IMG/VR virus record: IMGVR_UViG_3300027905_000001
Location: 15,362-79,361 of that record
Source: a virus
DNA length: 64,000 nucleotides
Direction: 5' to 3' (one strand)
Part shown: positions 4,813 through 54,706 of the stretch, piece after piece
Position numbering within the stretch: position 1 is the stretch's first letter
How the letters are laid out: each line of letters begins with the position of its first letter
Translations under genes and position numbers: made by a program
Notes under the pieces: model-generated
Databases searched by the model: none
What the model saw: the letters and a program-made list of their open reading frames with translations, nothing else
What the model was told of the DNA's origin: nothing

Positions 4813-4841
4813 TTGCATATGTCTTGACACCATGATATAAT
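4813..4841 (+). promoter_or_regulatory. Sigma-A-type promoter (TTGCAT-17-TGaTATAAT)
   Basis: -35 at 4813-4818, extended -10 at 4833-4841; the motif TATAATAAGTTAAGATC is repeated at 54668-54684. Confidence 0.55.
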
Positions 4842-4875
4842 AAGTTAAGATCTAATTTTGAAGGAGGTAAACGGC

Positions 4876-5271
4876 ATGACAAAGCTCGAAATTGCTAAAA
4901 ACATTAATGCCATCAAGGATTTAGGCCGCATTATTGCAACGAATTGGGAGATGGACTTTGTTGAAGGAGGAATCTATGACAATAAGGGCAATGTCGAAAG
5001 CTGGACTGACCGTGATAATTCAAAAGTGGCCTTTAAGCCCGAAAGCACCGGCACGATAACTTATGTCCTTCAATGCAATAAAGTCCCCTGTCACGTAGTA
5101 GACTACACTAGCACTGATGAAACTCGCGCCCTTGGCGCTACTGGCTGTGAAGATGAAGCTGAATGCCTGGTATTACCTGAAACAAAAATGATAATTACCT
5201 ACGTTTCCACTGAAGATGATTTCAACGAAATGGGATATTACTTAGTGGAAATGGAGATTGTCAATGAGTAA
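4876..5271 (+). CDS. Hypothetical protein (131 aa)
   Basis: ATG after GGAGG; track ORF 4858-5271. Confidence 0.5.
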   Translation: MTKLEIAKNINAIKDLGRIIATNWEMDFVEGGIYDNKGNVESWTDRDNSKVAFKPESTGTITYVLQCNKVPCHVVDYTSTDETRALGATGCEDEAECLVLPETKMIITYVSTEDDFNEMGYYLVEMEIVNE

Positions 5272-5869
5272 TCGCCATGGACACCCCCTTACTTCTGAAC
5301 AAAAGGGAGCGAGGGAGATTGAATATCGGAAAATGGCATTGGAATTTCATAAAGAAACAGGACGTTCGCCCCGGATGGCAGACTTACCTTTTCCTTATAA
5401 AATCTTTAAGGTTCACGACACGTGGAATGCATTTCTTGAAGATTGCGGGCTAGAGGTTAACCGTTTAACCACGGACGTTGAGAAATATTCTTTAATATTC
5501 GATTACAAGGAATTAGCTAAAAACTTAGAACGGACTCCTTACGCATTAGAATTTTATAAAAAATTTGGTTGCCAATACGCAGTCCGCAAATTATTTGGAT
5601 CATGGAATGCATTTGTTAAAGCTTGTGATCTTAAATTAAATAGATTCACAGGAGCAGAAAAAGAAGAACTTGTGGAACGCGTCTTGAAATTAGCTAAGAA
5701 ATTAGGTAAAACACCTACAACTCGTGAATTTAATGCACACGCAAAGAAAAGTAATCTATGCACGACGATGGTTATATGTCGGTATTTCGGAACATGGACG
5801 GAATGCCTTGAGTTTTGCGGGTTAGAGCCTAACCAAAATAAAAATTTTAAGCGTAGAAAGAAGGATTAG
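5264..5869 (+). CDS. Repeat protein with three W-NAF...CGLE units
   Basis: Repeats TWNAFLEDCGLE / GSWNAFVKACDL / GTWTECLEFCGLE. Confidence 0.5.
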   Translation: MSNRHGHPLTSEQKGAREIEYRKMALEFHKETGRSPRMADLPFPYKIFKVHDTWNAFLEDCGLEVNRLTTDVEKYSLIFDYKELAKNLERTPYALEFYKKFGCQYAVRKLFGSWNAFVKACDLKLNRFTGAEKEELVERVLKLAKKLGKTPTTREFNAHAKKSNLCTTMVICRYFGTWTECLEFCGLEPNQNKNFKRRKKD

Positions 5870-5871
5870 CG

Positions 5872-6036
5872 ATGGCAGAAACAACAACCGACGACCGCGA
5901 ACGCATGACACTACGCATCCCCCAGGACATTTGGCGCATGATCAAAATGGACCTGATTGACAAAAAAGAAAAGTCGGCCAATGAGCTTATCACAAACTTA
6001 ATATATGAGCACTACAAAGTACCCCGGCCGCAATAG
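5872..6036 (+). CDS. Ribbon-helix-helix (CopG/Arc-like) small DNA-binding protein (54 aa)
   Basis: MTLRIPQDIWRMIKMDL... beta-strand plus two-helix pattern; not in track (<60 aa). Confidence 0.45.
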   Translation: MAETTTDDRERMTLRIPQDIWRMIKMDLIDKKEKSANELITNLIYEHYKVPRPQ

Positions 6037-6086
6037 CTGGGGGTTTTCTTTACCTAAAAATACTTAATATTTATTGTCTTAATGCC

Positions 6087-6115
6087 TTGACACCACGACA
6101 TAAAAGATGTATTAT
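6087..6115 (+). promoter_or_regulatory. Sigma-A-type promoter (TTGACA-17-TATTAT)
   Basis: Shares CTTGACACCAYGAYATAA with the 4823 region. Confidence 0.5.
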
Positions 6116-6287
6116 TAACACATGGAAAACAGCACTCCAGCCCAATCCAGTGCAACAAACGCTTCCCCCGGCCAATTGCGGTCCGGGTCCGCCAAGAAGC
6201 CGAGAGAGAAAAGTTGACCGTGTGTCAGGGAAGAAGATTAATCCCGACAGGCTACAAAGGGAGCCGGGGAAAAAGGAGTTTTAAATT

Positions 6288-6497
6288 ATGAAACAAACTT
6301 ATTACAGCGTTGGTTATTACTCAGGAAGATCGAACAGCACTAGCACGGCGTTTTTTGATACTAAAGAGGCGGCTGAAAAATTTGCAGATCATGATTACAG
6401 GGATAACGTGGTAGCGCATCACGTGAGCAAGCCTGAGACGATTGCGAAATACGATGAGCTAGTTGCTATGACGGCGTTTGAGCTTAGAGACCGTTAG
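6288..6497 (+). CDS. Hypothetical protein
   Basis: Track ORF; AGGAG upstream. Confidence 0.5.
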   Translation: MKQTYYSVGYYSGRSNSTSTAFFDTKEAAEKFADHDYRDNVVAHHVSKPETIAKYDELVAMTAFELRDR

Positions 6498-6610
6498 GAT
6501 TTGCAGATGGCACCGGCCAGCACCCGGTGTAATGCACTAGCAGGCGTCCAAAGTCGCCGCAAATGCATCCCGACAGCTCGCAAGGAACGGGGAAAAGGAG
6601 GTCAGGACAG

Positions 6611-7057
6611 ATGCTCTATCACAGATTTACTAACTCATCAAACGTAATGTCCAACTGGGGTCACGCAATGTTTGCGGCCAACAGGGACGCGGTCGAAAAT
6701 TACGGTAGTAAAGAGTTTATCTTTAAATCATCTAGGGACAATAGCAAAACGATCAAGTCGCTCAAATCACTGATTATCAAAACTTGGAAGTACGATCAAA
6801 AAAATGGCTTTACCGGGGACTTTGGCAACGGCTGCACAGATGATTACTACTACAACGTCAAGGATAATGCAGTGGACGCTATTAGTATTTACAACAGCTT
6901 TGACCCGTCTAGCGTTGTGGAGAGCGCCGATGCTTGGGACTCCGAGCTTTATCAATGGTTTTGGGAGCGTATCGCGGAGCCTAACGGCATTATGGCAGTT
7001 ACAACTCAAGATGGGGCAATAGTATTTGATGCAGACTTAATTAAGGAGGTATGTTAA
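6611..7057 (+). CDS. Hypothetical protein
   Basis: ATG 6611 after AAAGGAGG; track ORF 6563-7057. Confidence 0.5.
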   Translation: MLYHRFTNSSNVMSNWGHAMFAANRDAVENYGSKEFIFKSSRDNSKTIKSLKSLIIKTWKYDQKNGFTGDFGNGCTDDYYYNVKDNAVDAISIYNSFDPSSVVESADAWDSELYQWFWERIAEPNGIMAVTTQDGAIVFDADLIKEVC

Positions 7058-7318
7058 ATGTCTAATGAGGATGACGTTATGTTTTTCAAAATAGCAAAGG
7101 TTAAAGCCGCTATCAGCAGGGTCCTAGACGGGTGCGTAAACGAGTTGCCGGATATCCAGTTTGGATGGAGCGGATCAGTTATCGAGGTTTATTTATCCGG
7201 CGGTAATTATCAAGTCCGCAACCTTATCGAGTCCCATTTTGTAAATAGCAGGAGGTATAAAGGCGTTACAATTACAAACAACGACACCAAAAAGCGTATC
7301 AGCTTTATTTTAAATTAA
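7058..7318 (+). CDS. Hypothetical protein
   Basis: Track ORF. Confidence 0.45.
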   Translation: MSNEDDVMFFKIAKVKAAISRVLDGCVNELPDIQFGWSGSVIEVYLSGGNYQVRNLIESHFVNSRRYKGVTITNNDTKKRISFILN

Positions 7319-7339
7319 GAAATTGAAGGAGTGTTAAAA

Positions 7340-7558
7340 ATGAAACGATTAGACATTTTTAAAAGCGAAGGTGGATACAGATTAGCATTGGGAATCTACA
7401 ACGACAGCCCCGTAATTGACAAGTCTCCTTGGTTCGAAACCAAGGAAGAGGCCGAAAAAGCAAGGCGCGAAGTCATAGAAGAAGATGAGCGAGAAGCCAA
7501 AATTGAGCAGTATATCCAAGATGGCAATATCGAGGCCCTCGAAAACATGGATAAGTAA
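7340..7558 (+). CDS. Hypothetical protein
   Basis: ATG after GAAGGAG; acidic C-terminus. Confidence 0.45.
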   Translation: MKRLDIFKSEGGYRLALGIYNDSPVIDKSPWFETKEEAEKARREVIEEDEREAKIEQYIQDGNIEALENMDK

Positions 7559-7652
7559 TTGCAGAGGATTAGGAGCCTAAAAACTCCTAATAATGCGCTA
7601 GGCAAGCGGTTCCAAGCCCGCGCCAATCGCAATTTTGAAAGGTGGAGCAATC

Positions 7653-7889
7653 ATGAAATACACCATAGCTGAATACCACGGCATAGACCGGCACCAAATG
7701 CAAGCCCATACCGAGGAAATCATTACCAAGCTTGAATTTATTCGAACAACATGCACGGATGCCGAATCGCTCGAATACACTGACGCCCAACTCGAATTTT
7801 ACCGCGAAGAACTAGCCAGTAAATCCCTGCTTATGTCATCATGGTGGGAAGTTGAGAACTACATGCGGAAAGGTAGGAAAATAGCATGA
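7653..7889 (+). CDS. Hypothetical protein
   Basis: ATG after AAAGGTGGAG. Confidence 0.45.
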   Translation: MKYTIAEYHGIDRHQMQAHTEEIITKLEFIRTTCTDAESLEYTDAQLEFYREELASKSLLMSSWWEVENYMRKGRKIA

Positions 7890-8077
7890 CCATCTACATC
7901 CATGAGTTTTACAAGGACAAGGAAAAGGCGCTCGCATTGGCTGAACTACCGGACGAACTAGATTATCACCGATTTGTCCACGGCTGTGAGCCTAAAAAGG
8001 TGAACATAGTCCCTTATTGGGCAGATTGCGACAAGTACAAGGCGAATAAGTCCACCATGACACTGTTTATTAGCTAA
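7886..8077 (+). CDS. Hypothetical small protein
   Basis: Track ORF, 4-nt overlap with upstream gene. Confidence 0.4.
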   Translation: MTIYIHEFYKDKEKALALAELPDELDYHRFVHGCEPKKVNIVPYWADCDKYKANKSTMTLFIS

Positions 8078-8157
8078 CATCAAGGCTTTTAGCCTTGGCT
8101 CAGCCGCTTTTTGAGCGGTTCAGCGAGGACTAAAAACGAATGAAAGAGGTAATTTAC

Positions 8158-9078
8158 ATGAGCATGATCAACGAACAACTAGCCCAACGATCAAAGGAAA
8201 ACATGAGTTTTTCCGACTACAAACCCGGCAGCGCAACGGCTGAATTCAACCAGGAAATAGCCAACGTCACCACGTTAGTTGAATCGGCCAAGCTCAGGGT
8301 ATCCGACGAAGGGAAAGCCAAGCTAGATCGTTTCCTAGCCTCTTACACCTCTCGTTATGCCGCATGGACCAATAAGCGCAACGCAAATGGTGCAGGACAT
8401 GTTAGTGTTATGATCGCAGGCCCAGCTAACTACAACATGAGAGCGCACGAAAAGTACATGAGCCGTGAAGGTAATCTCTGGAAAGAATACGAGGAATTCC
8501 GAAACCCTGAGTATAAAATTTCCTCCATCGTCGCAGGTGACAGAGTTATAAAATCCAATGATGTCAACGCTATTGAAAAATTGCAGGAGAAAATAGACGG
8601 ACTTGAAAAAATGCAGGAATTAATGAAAGCTTGTAACGCCATCATCCGTAAAAAGAAGCTGACCGACGAAGAGAAGATTGCTGCAATGGTAGAAGCTGGA
8701 GCCAGCGAAAAAGCCGCAAAAGAAACCTTGACCCCTAATTTTATGGGCAGAATAGGTTTTGCCTCTTATTCGCTCAGTAATAACAACGCAACGATCCGAA
8801 ACGCCAAGCAACGAATATCCCAGCTTGAGAAGATCGCTGCACGCGGCACGCAAGAGACTGTCATAGAATCAGACGCGGAGGAAACAAACGGCATACGCAT
8901 AGTTGACAATGTTGAAGCGCATCGGCTGCAAATATTCTTTAATGGCAAGCCATCGGCAGAAGTTCGAACACAGTTAAAGAAAAATGGATTTAGGTGGACG
9001 CCTAGTATTTCCGCGTGGCAGTCGTATCGAAGTGAGAGCGCAAACCGGGCAGCGCGTGAAATAGTGGCAGCAATGTAA
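8158..9078 (+). CDS. Hypothetical protein, C-terminus resembles DUF3560-like domain
   Basis: C-terminal motif LQIFFNGKPSAEVRTQLKKNGFRWTPSISAWQ; assignment from memory. Confidence 0.4.
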   Translation: MSMINEQLAQRSKENMSFSDYKPGSATAEFNQEIANVTTLVESAKLRVSDEGKAKLDRFLASYTSRYAAWTNKRNANGAGHVSVMIAGPANYNMRAHEKYMSREGNLWKEYEEFRNPEYKISSIVAGDRVIKSNDVNAIEKLQEKIDGLEKMQELMKACNAIIRKKKLTDEEKIAAMVEAGASEKAAKETLTPNFMGRIGFASYSLSNNNATIRNAKQRISQLEKIAARGTQETVIESDAEETNGIRIVDNVEAHRLQIFFNGKPSAEVRTQLKKNGFRWTPSISAWQSYRSESANRAAREIVAAM

Positions 9079-9162
9079 TTATATCGCGGGACCATCTTTG
9101 GCCCTGCTCCAAATGTCCGATTATGGGCACTTGGAGGAGAATCAAAATTTAGAGGTGATCAA

Positions 9163-9351
9163 GTGGCGGAAACGTGGTTCTCTCGACTTAAAACAGAGAT
9201 AGAAGATTCGAGAGACTTGCAAGAAATTCTTGGTGTTAAAGTTATCGAGCATCTTTTGTGGAACAATATCTCTCGCGAACAATACGAAACTCTCTCTAGC
9301 CTGCGCGTAAAAAGAATCCTGGAAAATTGGCACGAAGAATTTTTGGCTTAA
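9163..9351 (+). CDS. Hypothetical small protein
   Basis: Track ORF (GTG start). Confidence 0.35.
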   Translation: MAETWFSRLKTEIEDSRDLQEILGVKVIEHLLWNNISREQYETLSSLRVKRILENWHEEFLA

Positions 9352-9406
9352 ATCCACGCCGGACTATTCCGGTTTTTTCCCAACTAAAATTAAGGAGGAA
9401 TAACTT

Positions 9407-10021
9407 ATGTTTCATGCGTTCACGCTCGAACAAGCGAACCTCAGAGAGGTCCAAGGTTGGAAGGTCGGCCAACATGTCCAAGTCAAAGAATGGCGTGGTA
9501 CTTACGAAATCGAAGGCTACCACCAATACGGAAGGCAAAACGAGTACACCACTGTATACCTTGCCAAGCTCAAGAAAGACGGTACTAAGAGCAAATACAG
9601 CGGCGATACACCTATCGCTAACCTCATGCCATTGGGAGCGGCACAACCAACAACAGACAGCGCAGGACGAACAGCACTGCAGGCGGCACAGGAGCTATTC
9701 GGTAGCGGCTTTGCTAAACACGGATGGTATAACACGGATCGCGAATCACTGGTAAAGGTTGAGACGATCAGTAAGACAGGACGCGTCAAGGTGCAAGATA
9801 TAAGCGTCAAGGCTGGAATTACGGCACGTTCAAAGACTGTAGATGGACATAAAGTTTACAGTCAAGAAGATCGCCTGGTAAACTTTGCGGATCTCGAATA
9901 CGGTCTAAGTGGAGATATAAAAACATTCACGCCGCGCCTTTTTTGGGGTGAATGGGGCTTTTGGCATGATGGGGAAATTATCAAGGCCCCAGATATGAAG
10001 CTTACGTGGTTGCTAGATTAA
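9407..10021 (+). CDS. Hypothetical protein
   Basis: Track ORF with AGGAGG upstream. Confidence 0.5.
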   Translation: MFHAFTLEQANLREVQGWKVGQHVQVKEWRGTYEIEGYHQYGRQNEYTTVYLAKLKKDGTKSKYSGDTPIANLMPLGAAQPTTDSAGRTALQAAQELFGSGFAKHGWYNTDRESLVKVETISKTGRVKVQDISVKAGITARSKTVDGHKVYSQEDRLVNFADLEYGLSGDIKTFTPRLFWGEWGFWHDGEIIKAPDMKLTWLLD

Positions 10022-10031
10022 CATAATTTAA

Positions 10032-10055
10032 AGCCGGACATCATCCGGCTTTTTG
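10032..10055 (+). terminator. Rho-independent terminator
   Basis: Stem agccgga/tccggct, loop catca, then TTTT. Confidence 0.7.
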
Positions 10056-10059
10056 GCGT

Positions 10060-10896: not shown

Positions 10897-10933
10897 AAAT
10901 TAGCCCTCATTTTAGGATAATTTTCGAACAATA

Positions 10934-11068
10934 TTAAAGCATGCTTTTTTAGTTTGAATTAAAGCATGCTTTTTTGGTTTTTGTTTATGTAATTAAGGCA
11001 TGCTTTTTCTATGTCTGAAATTAAGGCGTGCTTTTATGTACCACCATCAAGATTAAGGCATGCTTTTT
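10934..11068. repeat. Five direct copies of ATTAARGCRTGCTTTT (palindromic core AAGCATGCTT)
   Basis: Copies starting 10934, 10959, 10993, 11021, 11053, spaced 25-34 bp, in a ~440-bp intergenic region. Confidence 0.75.
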
Positions 11069-11342
11069 GAGTAAAAAAGTGAACACCCTCAATTAAGAAG
11101 GTGTTCGAGTGAGAATAGAGAAGGAGGACAAAATTAAAAGCCCTTGCGAGCTTGTCAAATATTCAAAATAAAGCCGGTTCCAGATCGTAGAACCGGATTC
11201 TCCTTCTACACACGGTAGATGAGTTAAATAAACGAAGCACCGAACGACCACGATACGTAGGTCAATTCGATGCTTCTCAATGTTATAATCATAAACCTTT
11301 TACAGCTCAAATGTGGTAATAAATCGGTAATATTCTGGTAAT

Positions 11343-11915
11343 CTATACGTATTTACTAAAATAAAGGTATCTTTGAAATAATGGCCCTAATATCTCCCAC
11401 AATACTTCAAGCGCTTCTCTGTTAATCTTCCTTAACATTTCGTTTGTGATATAAACTCTACCAACAGAATGGCGCTCGTTAAACACAATCTCAATGTTCC
11501 TCCATGTCATGACTTCAAAGTATTTAGACCTAATAACGGTTTCCTGTTCCCTCGTTAATGCCTTCAGCGCTTCATCAATCTGCTCCATCTCAAGCGTCTT
11601 AAACCTCATCTTCGACCGATCCTCGTCAATCCAAGCCTCAACTAATTCCCTCGTAACCTCTCTGCGCCCTGCTATATGCTCGGTCGGCGAAGTTGTAGTT
11701 GTTGCGTGCGGCATACCGATAATTCTACTTACGCTGTTCTCGAATAACCATAGCTCTCCCGCGCTCAATGCTTGTTCCCATACCAGGATTCTCTGCATAG
11801 TTGTCACGACTTCTGCTTTATGTTTTTTATAGAGTTTCAAGCGTTCTTCGAGTATGTTTTGGGATTCTTTTATCATTGCTATGGTTATTACCTCCTCTCT
11901 ACCGTTTTGCGCCAT
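11343..11915 (-). CDS. Putative sigma-70 region-4-like transcription regulator
   Basis: C-terminal LTREQETVIRSKYFEVMTWRNIEIVFNE HTH pattern. Confidence 0.35.
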   Translation of the reverse strand: MAQNGREEVITIAMIKESQNILEERLKLYKKHKAEVVTTMQRILVWEQALSAGELWLFENSVSRIIGMPHATTTTSPTEHIAGRREVTRELVEAWIDEDRSKMRFKTLEMEQIDEALKALTREQETVIRSKYFEVMTWRNIEIVFNERHSVGRVYITNEMLRKINREALEVLWEILGPLFQRYLYFSKYV

Positions 11916-16855: not shown

Positions 16856-17374
16856 TTAATTGATATAATTTGACATTAATTTTGCCCCGGCTTCTTGTAC
16901 GACCTTAACCGCTTGTTCAAGTTCTTTATATACTCCTAGCCCTATCTGTTTTCGATTAATCATTAAGTAGGCTCGCCATTTTTTGGATGATTTGCGCCAA
17001 CTAACGCCCCTAAATCCTGAATTAGTTTTGCATTCTGCTTTTCTATTTTGCATGTTTACTGAATGAGTTACATTTCTAAGATTCCCTTTTGTATTATTTA
17101 ATGTGTCATGGTCAACGTGATCTACCACTAAATCATCGGGGCAATTGGTTATTAATCGATGTAGGCGTTTTGGTTTCAATCCTTCGCTAATCGACACATT
17201 ACTTATGGCATAAAACGAACTTGTCCCTTCAGACCAAAGAGCATGCCACTTTGCACCACCTTTTTGGGCTATCTCTAAATCCTCCCTATCAATTAAAGTT
17301 TCCATCACAGATCCATCTTCTCTATCTAAAAATATTGCCACTTTATCCCCTCTAAATTCGAATCTGTTTTTCAT
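16856..17374 (-). CDS. HNH homing endonuclease with AP2 DNA-binding domain
   Basis: HNH block LVVDHVDHDTLNNTKGNLRNVTHSVN; AP2-like FRGVSWRKSSKKWRAYL. Confidence 0.7.
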   Translation of the reverse strand: MKNRFEFRGDKVAIFLDREDGSVMETLIDREDLEIAQKGGAKWHALWSEGTSSFYAISNVSISEGLKPKRLHRLITNCPDDLVVDHVDHDTLNNTKGNLRNVTHSVNMQNRKAECKTNSGFRGVSWRKSSKKWRAYLMINRKQIGLGVYKELEQAVKVVQEAGAKLMSNYIN

Positions 17375-39515: not shown

Positions 39516-39520
39516 CGGTT

Positions 39521-40921: not shown

Positions 40922-40938
40922 GAAGTGAGGTTGAAATA

Positions 40939-41166: not shown

Positions 41167-42491
41167 GTGAAAAATCATCGTCCGTAAAGCCCGACCTGAT
41201 CGGCTTGACATCCTCTACTCTGGTCAAACTTGGACGCTTTGCCCTACGTCATATCGGCAGTCCCAACAACTCCTATGCGAACAAGATAATGCTGAACTGG
41301 AAACGCAATGACATATGCACCGAAACCAAAGAGCGAGGCAAGGATTACACAGAGAAGAAATACCCTACGCTAGTGGAAAAGACAATGAAGGGTCATAATC
41401 GAGTACTTAGATACAAGATACCCACCGGTCTAAATCCGCAGAAAGTCATGAAATCCCTCTACGACATCGAGTTCGATCTCAAGTCAGAAGTCCTATTCAA
41501 GCGACTTGAGAACGATCCCAAAGCGCACTTCTCACTCACTATCTTATCCGGCAAACTGTTAGACATTATCAACTACTCCAACGAGGCCAGTATTACTCCA
41601 GATGGCAAGGAGTTAAGCAAAGGTCTATGGATACCTCTAGGGTGGTCAAGAAGGGGCTTGGAACAACTTAATTTAGCCTCTAGCAACAGCCCTCATCTTA
41701 TGATCGGAGGGGCTACAGGAGGCGGCAAGAGCATCCTTGGCAGGCTTATCCTTGCTACCCTCCATATCCGCTATAACCGTGATGAATGCCGACTATGGCT
41801 CTGTGACCTTAAACATGGCAACGGCACAGCAAGGCTAGGGAAAAACCCTCTCCTTGTAGATAGGACTATTTCTGATCCGGGCGAAGCAGAACAAATGATG
41901 GACGATCTCTCTGTGATTATTGGCGAGCGATATAATTTATTTAAGGAGTATGAGTGCGACGATTTACAGGCGTTTAACGAGGAATATCCAAGATTGAGAT
42001 TGCCGCGCATTGTGGTTTATGTGGATGAATTAACCAAACTTGAGGGCAAGGAGTTCTCCAGGGCTCGTGAAAAGATGACTAAAGTCACGGGGGAATCCAG
42101 GGGTGCAGGAGTGCATGTTATTATCTCTTGTCACAGGCCCACAGCTAACCTTGTGTCCGGCACGATGAAGAACAATATCTCTGCCGTTGTCGCGTTTAAT
42201 TGCAACGCTGTATCGGCTCGTGTGTTGCTTGGAGAAGATCCGGAGGATTACAAGGCAGCCAGCATGATTGATCCAGATATCGAAGGTCGAGCATTGTTTA
42301 AATTTAAAGATGAGGTATTGCTGCAGGTCCCCTACATCGACAACCATGCAATCAAGTCCCTTATGGCCAACTATCAAAAAGCGATAATTAAAGGTAAGGT
42401 CGAGCCAGTGATACAGGCTGTTATTTCCACTAGGGTGGTTGAGCACTCAGTCGGGCACTCACTCGGTCATACTATTGAGCACCCCCAGTGA
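41163..42491 (+). CDS. FtsK/SpoIIIE-family DNA translocase-like ATPase
   Basis: Walker A GGATGGGKS, Walker B VVYVDE. Confidence 0.75.
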   Translation: MSEKSSSVKPDLIGLTSSTLVKLGRFALRHIGSPNNSYANKIMLNWKRNDICTETKERGKDYTEKKYPTLVEKTMKGHNRVLRYKIPTGLNPQKVMKSLYDIEFDLKSEVLFKRLENDPKAHFSLTILSGKLLDIINYSNEASITPDGKELSKGLWIPLGWSRRGLEQLNLASSNSPHLMIGGATGGGKSILGRLILATLHIRYNRDECRLWLCDLKHGNGTARLGKNPLLVDRTISDPGEAEQMMDDLSVIIGERYNLFKEYECDDLQAFNEEYPRLRLPRIVVYVDELTKLEGKEFSRAREKMTKVTGESRGAGVHVIISCHRPTANLVSGTMKNNISAVVAFNCNAVSARVLLGEDPEDYKAASMIDPDIEGRALFKFKDEVLLQVPYIDNHAIKSLMANYQKAIIKGKVEPVIQAVISTRVVEHSVGHSLGHTIEHPQ

Positions 42492-42614
42492 TTGTACTCA
42501 ACGATTCAATGCGCTTTATAGGCTCCTTTGGTCATGCCGTGCGGTCCGTAAAGTGCTTTATTATCCTTACTTTTTTATTTTGTATTTATTTTATATTTTT
42601 GCGAGGTGAAAATT

Positions 42615-43244
42615 GTGAACTTAGTGGCATATGGCAAGCAACGAGACGAACGAATTATGGGGCTAGTAGGGCTTGGGACAGCCTTTACGCGAAGCCAAAT
42701 AGAGCGAGTTATATTTAAGGGAAGTAAGCGTAAGGCTCAGACTAGACTGCAGGTGCTATCCGATTCAGGGCGACTAAAAAAGATTATCCGCAGTCCCCAC
42801 GAACCAGCCATCTATTGCCTCAAAAAACCCCGAAATATCGATCATTATTTACTTATCAATGAAATCTATTGTGCCGTAATGTCTCAGAAAAAGTCTTGGC
42901 ATATCGTCAAGTGGCAATGGTCATATCCAATTATGGAAGGTAAGATTTGGGCAGACGCAATGGTTGATATTTACGACCAACTCAATAAGCGTAGGCATGT
43001 TATATTTGTTGAGGTTGAGCGTTACGCAGACCGTAAGTTCGAGAAGGATAAAAAGTATTCAGCCATTACCAGCGCGAACTGGACGAAAGAAGAGTGGGCG
43101 ATTAAGGAGCCTACAAGGATATTGTTCCCGGCAATCCTAGTTGTCACCGAATGCAAATTAGAGGTCAAAAGCGAGTTGGATTTCTTTGTTGCCACGATGG
43201 ACCAAGTCAAAAAAGACATTTACTCTATTATCTTAAGGAGGTAA
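42615..43244 (+). CDS. Replication-relaxation family protein (putative)
   Basis: GTG after GAGGTGA; N-terminal winged-helix-like segment; assignment from memory. Confidence 0.4.
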   Translation: MNLVAYGKQRDERIMGLVGLGTAFTRSQIERVIFKGSKRKAQTRLQVLSDSGRLKKIIRSPHEPAIYCLKKPRNIDHYLLINEIYCAVMSQKKSWHIVKWQWSYPIMEGKIWADAMVDIYDQLNKRRHVIFVEVERYADRKFEKDKKYSAITSANWTKEEWAIKEPTRILFPAILVVTECKLEVKSELDFFVATMDQVKKDIYSIILRR

Positions 43245-43248
43245 CACC

Positions 43249-43467
43249 ATGGGTAAACTAGGAAAAGTGACCACAAAGGCCACCTATGGAATCCTGAATC
43301 TGGCGATGAAACCTATTTACGATCAGATGAAAAAAGAGAGAAAAGAAGAAGTTAAAAGATGGAACAAATCGCTAGATATAGCTTCTCAGGATGCAATGGC
43401 CGAGGCTAGATATTTTGAAGTAAGGCAGCCGTTTGATTCGATTATCCACAAGCACCCATTGTGGTAG
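43249..43467 (+). CDS. Hypothetical small protein
   Basis: Track ORF. Confidence 0.4.
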   Translation: MGKLGKVTTKATYGILNLAMKPIYDQMKKERKEEVKRWNKSLDIASQDAMAEARYFEVRQPFDSIIHKHPLW

Positions 43468-43490
43468 TAATGACAATAGTAATGACTTTT

Positions 43491-43570
43491 AGCCCCTTCG
43501 TAAACCGAGGGGCTATTTTAATGCCCTGACATAACGAAACCCCAGCATTTGCCGGGGGTTAGTTTTTATT
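43491..43570 (+). terminator. Two tandem hairpin terminators
   Basis: agccccttcg...cgaggggct + ATTTTAAT; aaccccagc...gccgggggtt + AGTTTTTATT. Confidence 0.55.
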
Positions 43571-43645
43571 CTCTATTATTTATGGCTATTCGGATTATAT
43601 GGTGGAAAATGAGTTTGGAATTTCCAGTTTTATAATAAATAATTA

Positions 43646-43700
43646 CTACTATTATAGCGTTATCGCTTGACAAATTATAGCGATAACGCTATAATAGTAG
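43646..43700. promoter_or_regulatory. Perfect 22-bp inverted repeat enclosing a consensus promoter (TTGACA-17-TATAAT)
   Basis: ctactattatagcgttatcgct (43646-43667) is the exact reverse complement of 43679-43700; -35 at 43667-43672, -10 at 43690-43695. Confidence 0.75.
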
Positions 43701-43763
43701 TAACAGCTAAAGATTACATGAACCCGACAGCCCATAAGGGGCGGGGCGAGAGGAGAATATAAA

Positions 43764-44624
43764 ATGGCAAATGAAGTCGTCAAGGAATACTACAAATGGG
43801 ATGAAACAGGTGAAGCTTTTGGCATAAGTATAAGCTACGATGCCGGAGATGACTGTGGTCCAGTTGCTGGGCTTAAACTAAGTGGTGGACAACCAAAAGA
43901 AGTCAACGGTCAAAATGTCGTTTGGTTCGAAAAAACAACCAAAGGTCAGCCCGTCGCCATAAAGTATAACAGCCGTCCCGATTTAGCAGCCCTTGTGAAC
44001 GAGTATAAAAAGTTTCAGGCTGAGCAACAAACAAGGCATAATACCCGGGCTGCTGCACATCAAGCCGAGCGGGAAGCCATAGACAACCCTCTACTTGAGG
44101 ACATGGAAGCAGAAGCTGTTGAATTGCGGAAAAAGATTCCGACCGGGCATATCGAGGTTGATGTCGAGGATAATGGCAATCTTGACGGCTATCCTAATTT
44201 AAAATACTCAGTAAACGGCGTTGAATTGCCTTGGGATAAGGTCAACCATATTGGCACTGCGAGTGCGATTCGCCCAGGCGCATTAGGTTCTTTTGCTCAA
44301 ATTTATGTCGTATCTATCGCCAAGGATCAAATCGAACAAATCAAAAAAGAGCAGGAAGAGAAATCGGCAATCAACCAAGCTAAAAAAGAGGCTTACCAAA
44401 GAGAATTAACTGGGACTATAATCCCTCCGGCGGCCTTAGAGGCTTACAACTATTACCACGGTGACGCAGAACTAGCATGGGAAAAAGAAGATGAATCCTC
44501 TTGGGCTCTTATTGAACGATGGACCACTTATATCGAGGCACAACATGGGATTGCCCCTCGTAAATTACAGCACATGGTTTCGGAATCCGCGCGCGAAGAG
44601 AATTATGGGATCAATGAGGGTTAG
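43764..44624 (+). CDS. Hypothetical protein (286 aa) under the palindromic operator
   Basis: RBS GAGAGGAG; track ORF. Confidence 0.5.
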   Translation: MANEVVKEYYKWDETGEAFGISISYDAGDDCGPVAGLKLSGGQPKEVNGQNVVWFEKTTKGQPVAIKYNSRPDLAALVNEYKKFQAEQQTRHNTRAAAHQAEREAIDNPLLEDMEAEAVELRKKIPTGHIEVDVEDNGNLDGYPNLKYSVNGVELPWDKVNHIGTASAIRPGALGSFAQIYVVSIAKDQIEQIKKEQEEKSAINQAKKEAYQRELTGTIIPPAALEAYNYYHGDAELAWEKEDESSWALIERWTTYIEAQHGIAPRKLQHMVSESAREENYGINEG

Positions 44625-44645
44625 TGGAGAGAGTGTTTGAAAAAA

Positions 44646-44680
44646 GAAAGAGCCGTAATCAATCGGCTCTTTCTGGATAA
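44646..44680 (+). terminator. Rho-independent terminator
   Basis: gaaagagccg / cggctctttc stem then T-rich. Confidence 0.6.
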
Positions 44681-44784
44681 CTTTTTATTTCAATCCACGC
44701 CTTACGGCGACAATCCTTGATGGGATTTATTACCCATAATATAATCCAAATAGCAGTATATGTCAAGACTAAGGAGGGCATTTC

Positions 44785-45492
44785 GTGAAAAAGAAACATC
44801 GGTCTATTTCGCAGATACTTGATAGATCGAAATCTGCCGAATCAAGAAGAGCTATCACTATAAATTGGTCAAAGTCATGGGAAAATGAGACCATGGAACT
44901 CATACGTAACCTTGAACAGGCTGTAAGGGCCATGGATTACGATCAGCTATGCATTAATACCAGGCAGCTTAAGGCGGTTACTCAAAAACGTTTTGGAGCC
45001 CTGCCAAATATATTTATGCACCTCACTAAGGCTGGTGCCGCAGAGAAAAACCCGGAAAAAGAACCCGAACCATTAGCCAATGCAGCTGTACAAGATATAC
45101 ACAAAAAGCAGGATGTCCCAAAAGAACCAGATGAGCCGAGCCATGCGGAGGAGCAGCATGTGCCCGGAATCTGCATAGACTGTGGTGTCAGTTTTAATGC
45201 TAAAACCAGCCGCCAAAAGCGGTGCCCCGAGTGCCAAGTTGAACACAACAAGGCGTTACGGTTAGCCGCGGCCAAGGCAACTCAAGATGTCAAAAGAGAT
45301 AGGCCTCTTTTGGATATCATGGAGGGATACATTACGGTAAAAGAATGGGCGAGCAAGCACGGTAAGAGTCCGTCCAGCGCTCAGAATATATTGTCCAATT
45401 CCCCTACTCTTGTACCAGCTGCCAGAAAGGTGCGCAATCCTCGCGGCGGCGTGGATATCTGGGTCGTACCAAAAGAGACAATATGGCCTTAA
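44785..45492 (+). CDS. Hypothetical protein with C-terminal zinc ribbon
   Basis: GTG start after AAGGAGGG; CIDCG...CPEC. Confidence 0.45.
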   Translation: MKKKHRSISQILDRSKSAESRRAITINWSKSWENETMELIRNLEQAVRAMDYDQLCINTRQLKAVTQKRFGALPNIFMHLTKAGAAEKNPEKEPEPLANAAVQDIHKKQDVPKEPDEPSHAEEQHVPGICIDCGVSFNAKTSRQKRCPECQVEHNKALRLAAAKATQDVKRDRPLLDIMEGYITVKEWASKHGKSPSSAQNILSNSPTLVPAARKVRNPRGGVDIWVVPKETIWP

Positions 45493-45513
45493 TAAAATAA
45501 AGGAATGATAGCG

Positions 45514-45693
45514 ATGGAACTTAAAGACGTACTAACAGGTCCCGAAGCTGCGCAACTTTGGAGCATTGGAGAGTCAACAGTCCGCAATGCAGCTGCGGCG
45601 GGTAAATTCAACGAAGACGAAGCTCGAAGGGCAGGGAAAAACTGGCTAATCACCAGAGAAGGCATGAAAAGAGTATTTGGTGATCCTAACTAA
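45514..45693 (+). CDS. Small HTH DNA-binding protein (excisionase-like)
   Basis: LTGPEAAQLWSIGESTVRNAAAAGKF...WLITREGMKRVFG. Confidence 0.45.
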   Translation: MELKDVLTGPEAAQLWSIGESTVRNAAAAGKFNEDEARRAGKNWLITREGMKRVFGDPN

Positions 45694-45800
45694 ATGGTCC
45701 ATACCATTTAGTTACAATTATGGAAACAGGGTTTTGATCATTCCACCATAAAATCCGCAGAGCCTATATTTCTTGGCTTTTAGGATATCTTCTGTATTTT

Positions 45801-46420: not shown

Positions 46421-46606
46421 CTACTCATCCTCCTTCGTGCATCTTTTACCATTCCAGAACGCGCAATCAGCATAGCAACTCCAATTGTCTACACTAAATC
46501 CCATATAGCAATTCAATCGCTTCTGTTTATCTTGGGAAGATTCCAATATTGGTTCTCTATCTTCCACCGACCCATTTATCGCATGCCAATTTTCCTTCAT
46601 GTTCAT
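46421..46606 (-). CDS. Cys-rich small protein
   Basis: Track ORF. Confidence 0.35.
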   Translation of the reverse strand: MNMKENWHAINGSVEDREPILESSQDKQKRLNCYMGFSVDNWSCYADCAFWNGKRCTKEDE

Positions 46607-46805
46607 TTATTTAACCTCCCTACATGTTCGCAAGTATTGCACATCCACCCTTGAAAGTAAGAATTCCAATACGATAAGCAACCACATTTTGGACAGAGTT
46701 TCATTTATTTCCCCTCTTTCTTCTTCTTTTTGAGTTCTCTAATGCAATCCTGCCTCAAATATCAGATTGGCCATTATTCCGTTGCGAAGTGGTTGGGGGT
46801 ATTCT

Positions 46806-48051: not shown

Positions 48052-48597
48052 TTACGCCACGCCTTGTACTCTTAACACTTTCATAATCTCATCCTCAAGG
48101 TTTTCTAGTTTTCCAAATTTGTAATTTATCCTATAGAGCCTTATGTTATTGTCCCTACAATACCTGTTCTTTAGGACATCATGAGCTACCGTATTCCCTC
48201 CCCACTCATCACCCTCTTTATGCTGCGCCCCGTCAATTTCGATTAAAAAGGGCCTTAATTCTCCTTGGATATAGAAATCGAACCTCAATAATTTACCGTT
48301 TAAGCCCTTTAACCCTTTAAATGTTTTTTCTTTCTGGAATATAGCATTATACCTTGTTAATATTTCTATAGCCTTTTCTTCGCCGAATGATTTTCCCGTC
48401 ATGCAATTTCGACAAATAGGGTTTTTGATTAATAGCTTTCTTTTAACAAGCATGGTGTTGTTGCATTTAGGACATAGGCATTCGATCTTGCCATATTTCT
48501 TACCTAGATTTATAAGTCCACTAACTTTTAACTTCTCTTGATTTCGTTCAAAGTTAATTTGATTAGTTATGGCTTTCTGTGCCTTAGATTTACTCAA
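48052..48597 (-). CDS. DUF559/Vsr-like PD-(D/E)xK endonuclease with N-terminal zinc ribbon
   Basis: CLCPKC...CRNC; LRFDFYIQGELRPFLIEIDGAQH; probable TTG 48597 after AAGGAG (track ORF extends to 48765). Confidence 0.5.
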   Translation of the reverse strand: MSKSKAQKAITNQINFERNQEKLKVSGLINLGKKYGKIECLCPKCNNTMLVKRKLLIKNPICRNCMTGKSFGEEKAIEILTRYNAIFQKEKTFKGLKGLNGKLLRFDFYIQGELRPFLIEIDGAQHKEGDEWGGNTVAHDVLKNRYCRDNNIRLYRINYKFGKLENLEDEIMKVLRVQGVA

Positions 48598-49074
48598 CCA
48601 CAAACACTCCTTATATACGTTCTTAAAGAAGATCCGGTAGAGGGGCCGGAGGAAGGACAAAGTTATGCCCCTCATTCGAAGAAAATGGACTGTTTTAGTC
48701 CAAAATCCAAGAATGAGAGAAGCATATTTTAATTTATCCGTGTGTCGGTTCCTCGGATATCTCAAACCTAGTTGATATGTTGCTCTCGCAAATATACGCT
48801 ACTCTACTAACGCGCCCATAGAGTGGAATGTGCGTACACCCCGTCAACACGTCACATGCTGACCGCTATTTTAACCTCCTGTATGCCGTTTAAGGGCCGC
48901 CATCGCCCAACGCAAGGTCATAGACAAAACTAGGAATTATCTCGCTTGCGCCACCAGTTTGGTTATAAGCAGCCGGTAACTGCATATAGTTTATAGTGTG
49001 TTTATACTTCCACTAGACAAACACAAAGCGACAAACCCTTGACGGCCTGTCGCTGAAAATTCCTTAATTTACAC

Positions 49075-52648: not shown

Positions 52649-53031
52649 TTTGATACACCATCCTTTAAACTTTTAAGCATCTCCGTTTGCAGGTCTAATG
52701 TATGGGCAATATGCGTCAACGCTTTATGGTCCACATCTGCCTTAGCATCCTGACGGGCCTGAGCTTTGTTCTGGCTTCTCTGTAATGCTGGAAGCGCCCA
52801 CCACTGTATCCAGTTTGACGAGATTACAGCGAGCAGTACCTTCGTCCAGTCGGGCAGGGGCAGGACCATCAACGGCAGGATAAATGCTAAGTTAAACATT
52901 ATCCGACTAGCCAAGATGTGATCTGTAAGCCAGTCGATTAGATGGTCATTCAAGCGAGCGATCTTCTTTTCGCATTGCTTGGCTTCATTGATTAATTCAT
53001 TGGGGTGTGTCACCGCATGGTGCTGATTCAA
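52645..53031 (-). CDS. Membrane protein (holin-like candidate)
   Basis: Hydrophobic core IMFNLAFILPLMVLPLPDWTKVLLAVI. Confidence 0.35.
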   Translation of the reverse strand: MNQHHAVTHPNELINEAKQCEKKIARLNDHLIDWLTDHILASRIMFNLAFILPLMVLPLPDWTKVLLAVISSNWIQWWALPALQRSQNKAQARQDAKADVDHKALTHIAHTLDLQTEMLKSLKDGVSK

Positions 53032-53527
53032 TATCTTTTAACACCTTCTCTGCTGTTTCTCCACATTCTGGTACTGGATTTTCGTTATCCTTTGCCAATT
53101 TCTGCATAATCCAAGACGGAAACGTCATGTCATGGATGCCTGTTCCACTACCACCATCCTCATGATCTACGCCAGTGTGATGGCTCTGGCAGAGACAAAC
53201 GAGGCACCTAACATCATCCACGGTGGTTAGTGGTTGATTCTTCAGGAGCCTCCCGTAGCCATAAATGTCCCACTCTTCGACGAATGTTTTCAGCTTGTCA
53301 AAATTTATAATGCTGGAAAACATCCATTCTGCCTGATGATGAGACTGAAGATCCTCGGTTGTGCCGCAAATATAGCAAAAGTAATGCCCATCCTCTTTCA
53401 GACGGGCTTTTGACTTGCGAAATTCTGCGCTCTCAGTGCGTTCGATTGTGTTGGGGTCAATGATAACCTCGTGTAGCGTTCGTTTCATTTCGTGTGCAAT
53501 CATTGCCCATTCCCCTTCTCGTTGCAC
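52997..53527 (-). CDS. Zinc-binding HNH-like protein (putative)
   Basis: CYICG...SHH and CLVCLCQSHHTGVDHEDGG. Confidence 0.3.
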   Translation of the reverse strand: MQREGEWAMIAHEMKRTLHEVIIDPNTIERTESAEFRKSKARLKEDGHYFCYICGTTEDLQSHHQAEWMFSSIINFDKLKTFVEEWDIYGYGRLLKNQPLTTVDDVRCLVCLCQSHHTGVDHEDGGSGTGIHDMTFPSWIMQKLAKDNENPVPECGETAEKVLKDIESAPCGDTPQ

Positions 53528-53823
53528 AACTGATTCAGCCGCAAATGAGCCGACTTGGTAGATTCATCGATTCGCGCAATTGCTACGGCATGATCAGAGA
53601 GTTGGGTGGAATGACCTTCCAGCTTGCGGTTTGTGTCCCGCTGTTCGAGGAGTATGTCGTCTGTGCGTTGCTTGATGTAAGTAATATCAGCCTGTTGCTC
53701 CCCGGTCTTAGCCCCTGCTGAGTATGTGTCTTTTTTTGCGCCCCGAGAATATCCCCAATAGGCAGATATGATGCCACAAATCGACCCTGCGGCTACAATG
53801 TACGAGACGGTTGTTTGATCCAC
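53500..53823 (-). CDS. Membrane-anchored coiled-coil protein
   Basis: N-terminal TM then charged region. Confidence 0.35.
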   Translation of the reverse strand: MDQTTVSYIVAAGSICGIISAYWGYSRGAKKDTYSAGAKTGEQQADITYIKQRTDDILLEQRDTNRKLEGHSTQLSDHAVAIARIDESTKSAHLRLNQLCNEKGNGQ

Positions 53824-53861
53824 TTGATCATCCCCTTTTCACCTCTTTTACTTGCTACCTG

Positions 53862-54341
53862 TTAGAATGATCCGATATAAGTTAAGAGTTTTGACCCCGA
53901 GACATCCTTTGGCGTTGGGTACTTGATCCCCGGGCAGAGATCAATGTCAGTATCGCTGTAGATACCGGCCCATAAGTTCGAGCAAATCCTCAAGTTCGGC
54001 GGTTCGCGATACGGCACAATCACGCCAAACGTGTATCTCATAAACTCGATAAAATCTAACCACCAGTCATATCTCTCGCCGACGCTGTATGTGGCTAATT
54101 CGAGTATTCTCCATCGTTGCTCGCGGGTTAGGTTGTTGTAACGAAACACGTCCGCACAGCCCTTGTACTTGCTCACGCGGGCATAACCCGTACGCCTAAG
54201 ACCTTCGGCTTCTATAAGCTCGCCGTGTCCTACATAGCCCGCCACGTGGCTATAACAGGAGTTTTCGACGCGTTCTATTGCTTCGCTGATTATACCCTTG
54301 CCGCGAACAAGGACGAGATCGCCTATGTGTAAATCTAACAT
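53862..54341 (-). CDS. Permuted papain-fold (NlpC/P60 superfamily, YiiX/C92-like) putative cell-wall peptidase
   Basis: GDLVLV...SCYSHVAGYVG and C-terminal RICSNLWAGIY; ATG 54341 after GGGAGGGAAG. Confidence 0.5.
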   Translation of the reverse strand: MLDLHIGDLVLVRGKGIISEAIERVENSCYSHVAGYVGHGELIEAEGLRRTGYARVSKYKGCADVFRYNNLTREQRWRILELATYSVGERYDWWLDFIEFMRYTFGVIVPYREPPNLRICSNLWAGIYSDTDIDLCPGIKYPTPKDVSGSKLLTYIGSF

Positions 54342-54360
54342 CTTCTTCCCTCCCTTCAGA

Positions 54361-54388
54361 CAATAAAAATAACCCCGTGTTGGGGTTA
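54361..54388 (-). terminator. Rho-independent terminator (minus strand)
   Basis: taacccc/ggggtta stem with U-run. Confidence 0.6.
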
Positions 54389-54412
54389 AGGTGTAAACGA
54401 CCAACGCCAGGG

Positions 54413-54580
54413 TTAATTCCCGGCGTTCTTTTCTTTTTCAATCAAAATATTAACAATCACGCTCACTGTGCGCCTTTGCTTCTCAGCTTTTTCCTGTAAC
54501 CAAGCCAATATTTCTGGTTCAAAGTAAATTGCCTCACGAATTTTCTTATCTGACTTAATTGGCCTCCCTCTCTCAGCCAT
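54413..54580 (-). CDS. Ribbon-helix-helix (CopG-like) small regulator (55 aa)
   Basis: ATG after AAGGAGTG; KKIREAIYFEPEILAWLQEKAEKQRRTVSVIVNILIE; not in track. Confidence 0.45.
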   Translation of the reverse strand: MAERGRPIKSDKKIREAIYFEPEILAWLQEKAEKQRRTVSVIVNILIEKEKNAGN

Positions 54581-54644
54581 ATCGATCACTCCTTAAAGTA
54601 ATTATACAGCATTAAAAATATTTTGCAATACCTTAAATTATCTA

Positions 54645-54673
54645 TTGTAAAGCATTTTGAGGCATGTTATAAT
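54645..54673 (+). promoter_or_regulatory. Sigma-A-type promoter (TTGTAA-17-TGTTATAAT)
   Basis: Downstream motif TATAATAAGTTAAGATC identical to 4836-4852. Confidence 0.55.
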
Positions 54674-54706
54674 AAGTTAAGATCAAAAACAGAGGAGGAA
54701 GCAAAG

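Follow-up and report, generated by a model that had tools for sequence, protein, structure and literature searches.

A candidate portable promoter and leader unit at accessory-gene slots of temperate phages associated with Desulfosporosinus

The stretch of viral DNA analysed here, 64,000 nucleotides long (positions 15,362 to 79,361 of IMG/VR record IMGVR_UViG_3300027905_000001; hereafter, the window), carries two distant modules of small plus-strand genes that run against the surrounding phage operons, and the same 17 nucleotides, TATAATAAGTTAAGATC, stand before both. Why should two such modules share this sequence? The earlier note on this DNA took the repeat as a sign that the modules are co-regulated. 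The explanation that we favour, and hold to be rather probable, is that the 17-mer belongs to a portable sigma-A promoter/leader cassette, placed at slots whose cargo recombination could swap; it would be a shared expression chassis and not a dedicated common switch.

A shared unit in the window and in related phages

The 17-mer occurs as exact matches at 4836-4852 (site S1, before module 1) and at 54668-54684 (site S2, before module 2), and the window holds no further copy even when three mismatches are allowed. The first site (4813-4878, plus strand) comprises a -35 element, TTGCAT, at 4813-4818, a 17-nt spacer, a TG at 4833-4834, the -10 hexamer TATAAT at 4836-4841 with which the 17-mer (4836-4852) begins, a ribosome-binding site (RBS), GAAGGAGG, at 4860-4867, and an ATG at 4876. 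The second (54645-54709, plus strand) has its -35, TTGTAA, at 54645-54650, likewise a 17-nt spacer, a TG at 54665-54666, the -10 at 54668-54673 within the 17-mer at 54668-54684, an RBS, GAGGAGG, at 54692-54698, and an ATG at 54707. At both, TATAAT follows a TGn (an extended -10), the -35 agrees with TTGACA at three (S1) or four (S2) of six positions, and a strong RBS lies between the -10, whose first T is 40 nt (S1) or 39 nt (S2) from the ATG, and the start codon. Given this TTGnnn-17-TGnTATAAT arrangement, the strong RBS and the set distance to the ATG, S1 and S2 look like genuine sigma-A-type promoters. The earlier note had read both 17-mers as the -10 of promoter-like sites that precede small plus-strand genes antisense to their minus-strand neighbors, and this anatomy agrees with it.

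By itself, the repetition of a 17-mer within the window is not significant: an exact direct repeat of at least 17 nt arose somewhere in 64 kb in 16% of second-order Markov simulations (mean 0.18). The similarity of the two sites is longer, however, reaching 23 of 25 bases (CATGnTATAATAAGTTAAGATCnAA) and, with one 1-nt gap, about 27 of 32 from TTGA on, as read from the sequence. Because the sites also occupy equivalent positions (-35 at 17 nt, ATG at +39/+40) and the unit recurs in other phages, their likeness is not due to chance. Their leaders belong to different subtypes (that of S1 resembles the one at related locus L001, and that of S2 the one at L014), and the two are therefore not recent duplicates of each other.

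The spacer of S1 contains a box, CTTGACACCATGATATAA (4823-4840, plus strand), that shares 16 of 18 positions with 6086-6103, where a third promoter-like site, S3 (6086-6115, plus strand), has TTGACA at 6087-6092, a 17-nt spacer and TATTAT at 6110-6115. The sequence that the earlier note had seen to be shared by the 4823 and 6087 promoters is indeed present, as CTTGACACCAYGAYATAA, at 4823 and 6086; the 4836 promoter does not, though, have its -35 in the CTTGACACC... box, as the TTGACA of that box (4824-4829) lies in the spacer, merely 6 nt before the TATAAT at 4836. A promoter scan suggested that this TTGACA may instead pair, at 16-nt spacing, with TAAGAT at 4846-4851, as a possible overlapping second promoter.

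The unit extending from the -10 to the start codon was found in at least 14 copies in related phage contigs from peat and groundwater, and at least 11 unrelated open reading frames (ORFs) stand behind these copies. Motif scans yielded those at L001/L012/L018, L009/L019, L010, L013, L014, L015, and L016 plus L017, the last two being separate copies on one 42-kb contig. Five others (L008, L024, L031, L034 and L005) were obtained without the 17-mer as bait and count for more as evidence. L008, retrieved via an 85%-identical homologue of the 67-residue protein of module 2, has ATGgTATAATAAcTTAAGATCAAATTTGAGGGGG in the same place upstream (16/17), and L024, retrieved via a homologue of the first gene of module 1, has TATAATAAGTcAAGATC at position 8138 (16/17) before a different gene set. 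Scans anchored on the leader and RBS gave L031 (15/17) and L034 (13/17), and L005 is a diverged cassette (14/17). In every phage copy the -35 is placed at exactly 17 nt and reads TTGnnn, except in L031 (TGTACA); the offset from TATAAT to ATG is 35-40 nt among the copies measured.

Pairwise, the similarity extends 17-50 nt rightward, to or just past the ATG, but only 0-7 nt leftward of the -10. Two sets of loci are exceptions: L011-L014, which have a common ribbon-helix-helix (RHH) family and TACTAAyGCTA repeats, and L015-L017, which have an identical promoter and different cargo. Farther homologues of the lead genes have unrelated promoters or none (L006, L007, L021 and L024 for the first gene of module 1; L027 and L028 for the 67-residue protein gene), and the cassette thus tracks the phage lineage and not the gene. 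A motif scan of a genome collection returned three matches, about the chance expectation, of which two fell within archaeal coding sequence and one in a metagenome-assembled genome (MAG) assigned to the Eubacteriales. At this last site (L002, 5526-5545; relation unclear), a signal-peptide gene is preceded by the exact 17-mer, a -35 at 17 nt (TTGACT) and an RBS; the site may be a chance match or a distant relative of the cassette. A blastn search with the S2 cassette gave weak, chance-level matches only, inside coding genes.

The first gene of module 2 (54707-54910, plus strand; SBF1_50124) encodes the 67-residue protein, modelled as helix, beta-hairpin, helix, for which just three homologues were found in 5.8 billion proteins. 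An internal linker, GGCCAGCnGGnnCAAATACCGGCGnAAGGAG (54911-54951, plus strand), made up of a small GC stem-loop and an RBS, leads to the genes for a 51-residue Cys-rich protein (54952-55107, plus strand) and a 62-residue protein (55110-55298, plus strand) whose C-terminal end, ...QESTRP, includes the lineage-conserved ...ESTRP. As GGCCAGCCGGGGCCAATACCGGCGnAAGGAGG, the linker also stands before internal cargo genes in L008 (~6000-6045), L010, L013, L015, L016 and, twice, L024 (8720-8770 and 8950-9000), i.e., it is conserved at seven more places over six other loci. The module ends in a 3' block of ~95 nt (55277-55372, plus strand) that aligns with four relatives (five loci in all), and its hairpin (55329-55366; fold z=-2.9) shows compensatory changes. 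A UUUUUG run follows the hairpin in the window only, where it is therefore an intrinsic terminator; in the relatives, what comes after the hairpin is not a U-run but the RBS of a gene for a tyrosine recombinase.

The order of features around this slot was the same in L010, L011 (on the contig of L008), L015, L016 and L024: a lysis cassette, the divergent promoter cassette, variable small genes, the hairpin block, and a gene for a XerC-like tyrosine recombinase. A protein of ~73 residues ending in ...YEQESTRP is encoded before the hairpin block in L010, L011, L015 and L016. Module 2 represents the same slot without the recombinase, which adjoins the cassette in L013 and L017 too; the contig of L016 and L017 also holds an ordinary integrase. 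The ORFs in the slot (lysis genes, divergent cassette, cargo) differ among L010, L011, L014, L015, L016 and L024. Three junctions that the lineage conserves, and the interchangeable ORFs placed between these, thus make up module 2. On the other side of S2 lies a divergent gene (54413-54580, minus strand; SBF1_50123) for a 55-residue RHH-like protein (a weak RHH_5 match, E=0.0027, below the Pfam cutoff), with its own predicted promoter, TTGCAA-16-TATAAT, running from 54628 to 54601 on the minus strand. A divergent RHH gene occupies the same place in L008/L011 and in L014.

Origin and control of the unit

From these comparisons, we propose that the 17-mer comprises the -10 hexamer, the discriminator and the transcription-start region of a homologous unit of ~40 nt, in which the -10 is followed by a short purine-rich leader, a strong Shine-Dalgarno (SD) sequence and a start codon. 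Its users would be a lineage of temperate siphovirus-like phages, Desulfosporosinus-associated and sampled from peat and groundwater, and the host sigma-A RNA polymerase would read it together with a TTGnnn -35 at exactly 17 nt. The unit would head cargo slots, i.e., short, terminator-closed transcription units, antisense in late-gene territory, that are situated before terS or between the tail-fibre and lysis genes and whose ORFs vary by phage. The cassette, the stem-loop/RBS linker and the 3' hairpin block would provide short homologies where phage recombination could swap the cargo, with the RecT-like annealing protein of this phage (27997-29019) as a possible helper, and selection for efficient initiation would keep the units alike. 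Specific control, where present, would reside in locus-specific spacer and upstream sequences and in small DNA-binding proteins encoded nearby.

At S1 and at the 6087 promoter, the locus-specific control sequence would be the CTTGACACCAYGAYATAA box. A related sequence, CACCGTGATAT, is present twice in L006, another locus with a homologue of the first gene of module 1, and for this reason we regard the S1/S3 box as a reasonable candidate for a module-1-specific operator. A local direct repeat, ATATATCTTG/ATATGTCTTG, also occurs at S1 (p=0.04). In a shuffle test, locus-specific upstream repeats or dyads were significant in L011 and L034 (p up to 0.003), L016 (p=0.01) and S1 (p=0.04), and marginal in L014 and L031. 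By eye, every copy had seemed to possess operator-like repeats of its own; the test backs this impression for four to six of 14 copies, S2 not among them.

Published metatranscriptomes provide a view of expression in situ. Gene order and lengths in the window agree with scaffold SBF1_5 of the Desulfosporosinus sp. MAG SbF1, whose gene identifiers are used here, and the table for that genome (PMC6372793 Table S1a) lists 'no detected expression' for SBF1_50029 (the first gene of module 1) and for SBF1_50123, 50124 and 50126. Per-gene values for SBF1_50030 and SBF1_50031 were marginal and confined to one treatment (PMC6372793 Table S1a). The repressor gene, SBF1_50095, was undetected too, and these data consequently do not discriminate on expression in lysogeny, which the earlier note had suggested as one possibility.

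Several observations weigh against the cassette explanation. At 40 nt, the unit is short for homologous recombination, and the recombination step is one that we infer, no recombinant junction having been caught. The conservation of AAsTTAAGATC, just 3' of the -10, exceeds what RNA polymerase needs and lacks a specific explanation. Most copies came from a pattern containing the 17-mer, so that its apparent invariance is partly an ascertainment effect, and all come from few related metagenomes and are phylogenetically non-independent. Further, at S2 and in about half of the copies the upstream repeats lack significance, and control by a local operator is thus not general. Finally, the undetected lead genes argue against very strong constitutive activity in situ, though the repressor gene was likewise undetected.

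The first alternative is that the bases just 3' of the -10 (AAsTTAAGATC; AAGTTAAGATC) form a common operator, bound by one trans-acting phage or host protein, through which all cassette-headed units would be repressed or activated together, for instance as an early or lysogeny regulon. These 11 nt are conserved above the rest of the leader and above the needs of sigma-A, both window copies are identical in this stretch, and a precedent exists in repressor sites of the stoperator type, which are repeated throughout a phage genome (PMC9283540, PMC6550527). The 64-kb window, however, has just two copies, neither of them in the immunity region, where an unrelated repeat, GTAAnTnATATTAACGCAAT (37292-37311 and 37584-37603), flanks a Cro-like gene (37302-37544, minus strand) and adjoins the repressor gene. 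The two copies of GTAAnTnATATTAACGCAAT are probably the immunity operators, and neither S1 nor S2 has one nearby. No dyad or direct-repeat symmetry is conserved across the cassette copies, and the diverged ones (L005, L031 and L034) drift as ordinary homologous DNA does. The small DNA-binding proteins encoded nearby differ by locus, and no candidate protein common to all cassette loci turned up, although this was not tested systematically. We consider a common operator unlikely.

The same evidence bears on the proposal that the two modules are co-regulated, which did not hold up. What S1 and S2 share is a core promoter and leader, found lineage-wide before at least 11 unrelated genes, and the spacer and upstream region, where regulators usually have their sites, differ between them. 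The adjoining small proteins (5872-6036, predicted to be co-transcribed from S1, and 54413-54580, encoded divergently from S2) have no detectable similarity to each other, and neither site contains the immunity operators seen at 37292 and 37584. Co-regulation of the two modules is unlikely on the present evidence, and any regulation is probably local.

A second alternative, to which we would give marginally less weight than to the operator, places the function in the RNA: the leader, AGAUCAAA...GAGGGGG, could be a conserved 5' element of the mRNA, acting as an enhancer of translation initiation or as the target of an RNA-binding protein, an RNase or a small RNA. Similarity does reach the start codon, and the distance from the -10 to the ATG is fixed; a second start-proximal element, the stem-loop/RBS linker, stands before internal genes that lack promoters; and the SAS/ESAS motifs discussed later (PMC3203893) set a precedent. 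Yet the best-conserved part, TATAATAAsTT, precedes the expected start site and would be missing from the transcript, whereas the leader that would be transcribed, from GATC to the RBS, varies more than any other segment and has at least five versions. This leader, ~25-30 nt long, is too short for a folded element.

Two further possibilities give the relatives' recombinase a role. In one, which we think improbable, the 5' cassette, the linker, the 3' hairpin block and the XerC-like recombinase would together constitute a dedicated cargo-exchange system of temperate Firmicute phages, with AAsTTAAGATC doubling as a protein recognition site. Such a system would be a phage analogue of the integron or of PeSL mini-circles (see below), offering standard junctions for the capture, expression and passing on of small genes, e.g., the minimal ADP-ribosyltransferase of module 1. 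In the other, the XerC-like recombinase would act on the cassette and on the 3' hairpin block as attI/attC-like sites of an integron-like array. The order of cassette, variable cargo, hairpin block and tyrosine recombinase in L010, L011, L015, L016 and L024, and the recombinase beside the cassette in L013 and L017, would fit this, but the array failed when tested: neither window module adjoins a recombinase, and no attC-like inverted repeats surround individual cargo genes in the window, L010, L015 or L024. The junctions are an ordinary promoter and RBS, and terminator or attenuator function accounts for the hairpin block. We regard site-specific recombination of this kind as very improbable. 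Lastly, a chance likeness of two strong, AT-rich promoters, for which one could cite the simulated frequency given above and the expectation of TATAAT at any promoter, is effectively refuted by the 23/25 extension, the equal -35 spacing, the same ATG offset and the recurrence of the unit at no fewer than 12 other phage loci, some of which came from protein homology and not from the motif, whereas real chance matches (L003, L004 and L033) have no -35, RBS or start codon.

Gene content of module 1 and of the surrounding genome

Module 1 forms a plus-strand island (4876-10021) beside terS (3870-4769, minus strand; SBF1_50028; Pfam Terminase_2, 6e-34), which is divergent from S1 and whose likely promoter, GTGTCA-16-TATAGT (4830-4803, minus strand), overlaps the S1 box on the opposite strand. 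Its first part, module 1a, opens with a gene (4876-5271, plus strand; SBF1_50029, with the other module 1 genes numbered onward from it) for a 131-residue protein with the predicted fold of a minimal R-S-E-type mono-ADP-ribosyltransferase (ART). The predicted catalytic residues, R18, S42/T44 and E94/E96, are invariant or nearly so in 16 homologues, and the motif residues are located on strands 12-22, 41-45 and 96-99. We found 17 homologues, all metagenomic. The product gave no match in Pfam, among PHROG functions, in PADLOC or to PDB sequences, and no profile placed it in a described ART family. Solved domains of the R-S-E clade (Tre1, HopU1, C3, Vis and SpvB) span 180-230 residues, as against 131 here; in further contrast to that clade, the product has no Pfam or PDB ART sequence match, no signal peptide and no recognisable immunity partner, and its ART role is a prediction. 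Phage ARTs are exemplified by Alt, ModA and ModB of T4. The gene at 4876-5271 may belong to a family of very small phage ARTs that has gone unannotated. The earlier note had called the products of the modules unknown, which its predicted fold improves on for this one; the model of the 67-residue protein is a generic helical hairpin.

The second gene of module 1a (5264-5869, plus strand) encodes 201 residues with three HNH_repeat DNA-binding repeats of the kind associated with homing endonucleases (Pfam PF18780, 5.5e-28) and has no nuclease domain. Homologues stand behind the first gene in L021 and L024, in the former fused to a NikA-like RHH domain, and behind the first gene one regularly finds an HNH_repeat protein together with a small RHH-type protein. 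The third gene (5872-6036, plus strand; 54 residues) occupies by synteny the place of the NikA-like RHH, an assignment that Pfam and PDB sequence searches did not support and that is unconfirmed. An intrinsic terminator at 6022-6042 (feature 6022-6052, plus strand) closes module 1a.

Module 1b (6288-10021, plus strand) is an operon of about ten small orphan genes together with genes for a 312-residue protein (phrog_19458) and a 204-residue protein, extending from the predicted S3 promoter, TTGACA-17-TATTAT (6087-6115), to a bidirectional terminator (10030-10052). The GC-rich leader of ~170 nt behind the 6087 promoter gave no Rfam match, and its folding was ordinary (z=-0.7). Within the operon, two intercistronic gaps contain matches to the Twister-P5 ribozyme (Rfam RF02684; gathering score 37.6) on the plus strand, at 6502-6558 (39.7 bits) and 7560-7621 (44.1 bits); the core is conserved, and seven of 15 pairs have compensatory changes between the copies. 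Judged by score, core and stems, both are Twister-P5 elements in sequence and predicted structure. Twister ribozymes near phage genes were already known (PMC4604425). A search for known defence systems with PADLOC gave no match for any module protein.

Taken as a whole, the window was annotated as a temperate siphovirus-like genome, mostly on the minus strand. Candidatus Desulfosporosinus infrequens has a protein with 100% identity to the product of the first module 1 gene. An XRE-type repressor (37625-37984; SBF1_50095) and a serine integrase (37987-39465) are followed leftward by the early/replication operon, which runs from 37544 down to ~10.5 kb in the main, minus-strand direction and encodes anti-repressors, methyltransferases, SbcC-like and RecT-like proteins, several HNH endonucleases and a replication initiator. 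In the right part of the window, the tail genes (63785 to 55419) are succeeded by module 2 (SBF1_50123 to 50126) and, beyond it, by a lysis-type gene cassette (54580 to 49300). On scaffold SBF1_5, TerL, portal, protease and HK97 capsid genes lie to the left of the window, past terS. This had raised the idea that the modules belong to two different prophages, which we rejected: the scaffold begins with tape-measure and tail genes, ends with the gene for a 1041-residue tail protein (SBF1_50134) and contains zero host genes. Because it has no host genes and both its ends are in tail genes, the scaffold would be one circularly permuted phage genome holding both modules. Megablast searches with both window ends gave no DNA relatives among cultured phages, and a TerS-anchored search of viral contigs gave no relatives.

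Some further features of the window were recorded. Four copies of a 23-nt repeat, ATTAAAGCATGCTTTTTTAGTTT, lie at 10933-11074 (78-100% identity, 25-60 nt apart), downstream of a phrog_36 regulator gene (11343-11915) and close to where the early operon ends. An inverted repeat at 43643-43703, perfect over 25 nt and with an 11-nt spacer, overlaps a perfect consensus promoter, TTGACA-17-TATAAT (43667-43695), upstream of a gene for 286 residues (43764-44624). The minus-strand leaders of terS (4785-4807) and of a 61-residue protein gene (46421-46606; leader 46615-46637) share ATAsTwGCrAACATGTAGGGAGG, with more similarity upstream, and may reflect a shared late promoter or leader. In a plus-strand block at 39500-45700, an FtsK/SpoIIIE-like protein (41163-42491) and its neighbors resemble the small integrase/HTH/FtsK/Replic_Relax element beside the homologue of the first module 1 gene in L024; the block is possibly an integrative element that sits inside the phage or is fused with it. 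The phage has unusually many genes for endonucleases of HNH or homing type, at least five in scattered places (2660-2968, 16856-17374, 27319-27939, 48052-48765 and 52997-53527), with the HNH_repeat protein of module 1 in addition.

Known counterparts and significance

The closest described concept to the cassette is, by analogy, that of the promoter early stem-loop elements (PeSLs), units of promoter, stem-loop and SD beside accessory ORFs by which modules are shuffled in T4-type myoviruses (Arbiol et al. 2010 PMC2839356; Comeau et al. 2014 PMC4122927). Like them, the cassette is a short, conserved intergenic unit of sigma-70-type promoter, SD and start before unrelated accessory ORFs, and it marks points where gene content differs, as at L015 and L017 with their identical promoter and different cargo; a stem-loop element is present here as well, in the internal linker and the 3' block. 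Unlike them, it belongs to temperate siphovirus-like phages of Firmicutes and not to lytic T4-like phages of Gram-negative hosts, and it occurs once or twice per genome (two copies in the 64-kb window), whereas PeSLs number dozens in hyperplastic regions. The PeSL motif has a built-in stem-loop terminator, but the cassette has no stem-loop (no significant dyad at S1 or S2). In addition, the cassette is conserved between the -10 and the ATG but variable in its -35 and spacer.

The modules also resemble morons, a concept that reportedly originated with Hendrix and colleagues and for which an ART is a classic cargo. In lambdoid and other temperate phages, a moron is a gene inserted into a late operon as a separate unit, with a promoter and a terminator of its own (definition as in PMC6469090). 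The modules fit the moron layout that the earlier note had seen: each module has its own predicted sigma-A-type promoter and an intrinsic terminator (6022-6042 in module 1; 55329-55366 plus the U-run in module 2), lies among late genes and antisense to their operons, and has cargo that varies between relatives. Classical morons, however, are not defined by a common promoter sequence; their functional hallmark is expression from the prophage, where the layout here is read from DNA; and module 1b is a multi-gene operon of 3.7 kb and not one added gene.

Two families of short motifs in mycobacteriophages invite comparison. The start-associated sequences (SAS) and their extended form (ESAS) of Cluster K phages (Pope et al. 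2011, PMC3203893) are likewise lineage-restricted, asymmetric and SD-containing, and they lie at a fixed short distance from the starts of different gene families; ESAS add an upstream repeat, comparable to the stem-loop in the linker here. SAS, however, are 13 bp long, number 10-19 per genome and are not promoters, whereas in the cassette, with only two copies in the 64-kb window, the -10 and discriminator are best conserved. The stoperators of Cluster A phages (PMC9283540, PMC6550527) are also short, asymmetric motifs at distant places in the genome, oriented with transcription. They match the early-promoter operator of the immunity repressor and number 20-30 per genome; here the immunity repeats are another sequence, and a stoperator-like shared operator failed when tested, the 17-mer not being found at the early promoters of the immunity region.

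The finding reveals no new regulatory circuit. If the cassette explanation is true, mobile regulatory cassettes, described until now for lytic T4-like phages, reach the temperate phages of anaerobic Firmicutes, and three standard junctions (promoter/leader, stem-loop/RBS linker and 3' hairpin) frame interchangeable accessory genes in their genomes. In contigs of uncultured phages, the cassette could be used as an inexpensive tag with which to find accessory-gene slots; as a predicted ready-made pair of promoter and RBS, it could also serve genetics in Desulfosporosinus-type hosts. It also points to a previously unannotated family of very small, predicted ADP-ribosyltransferases among the genes that these phages carry.

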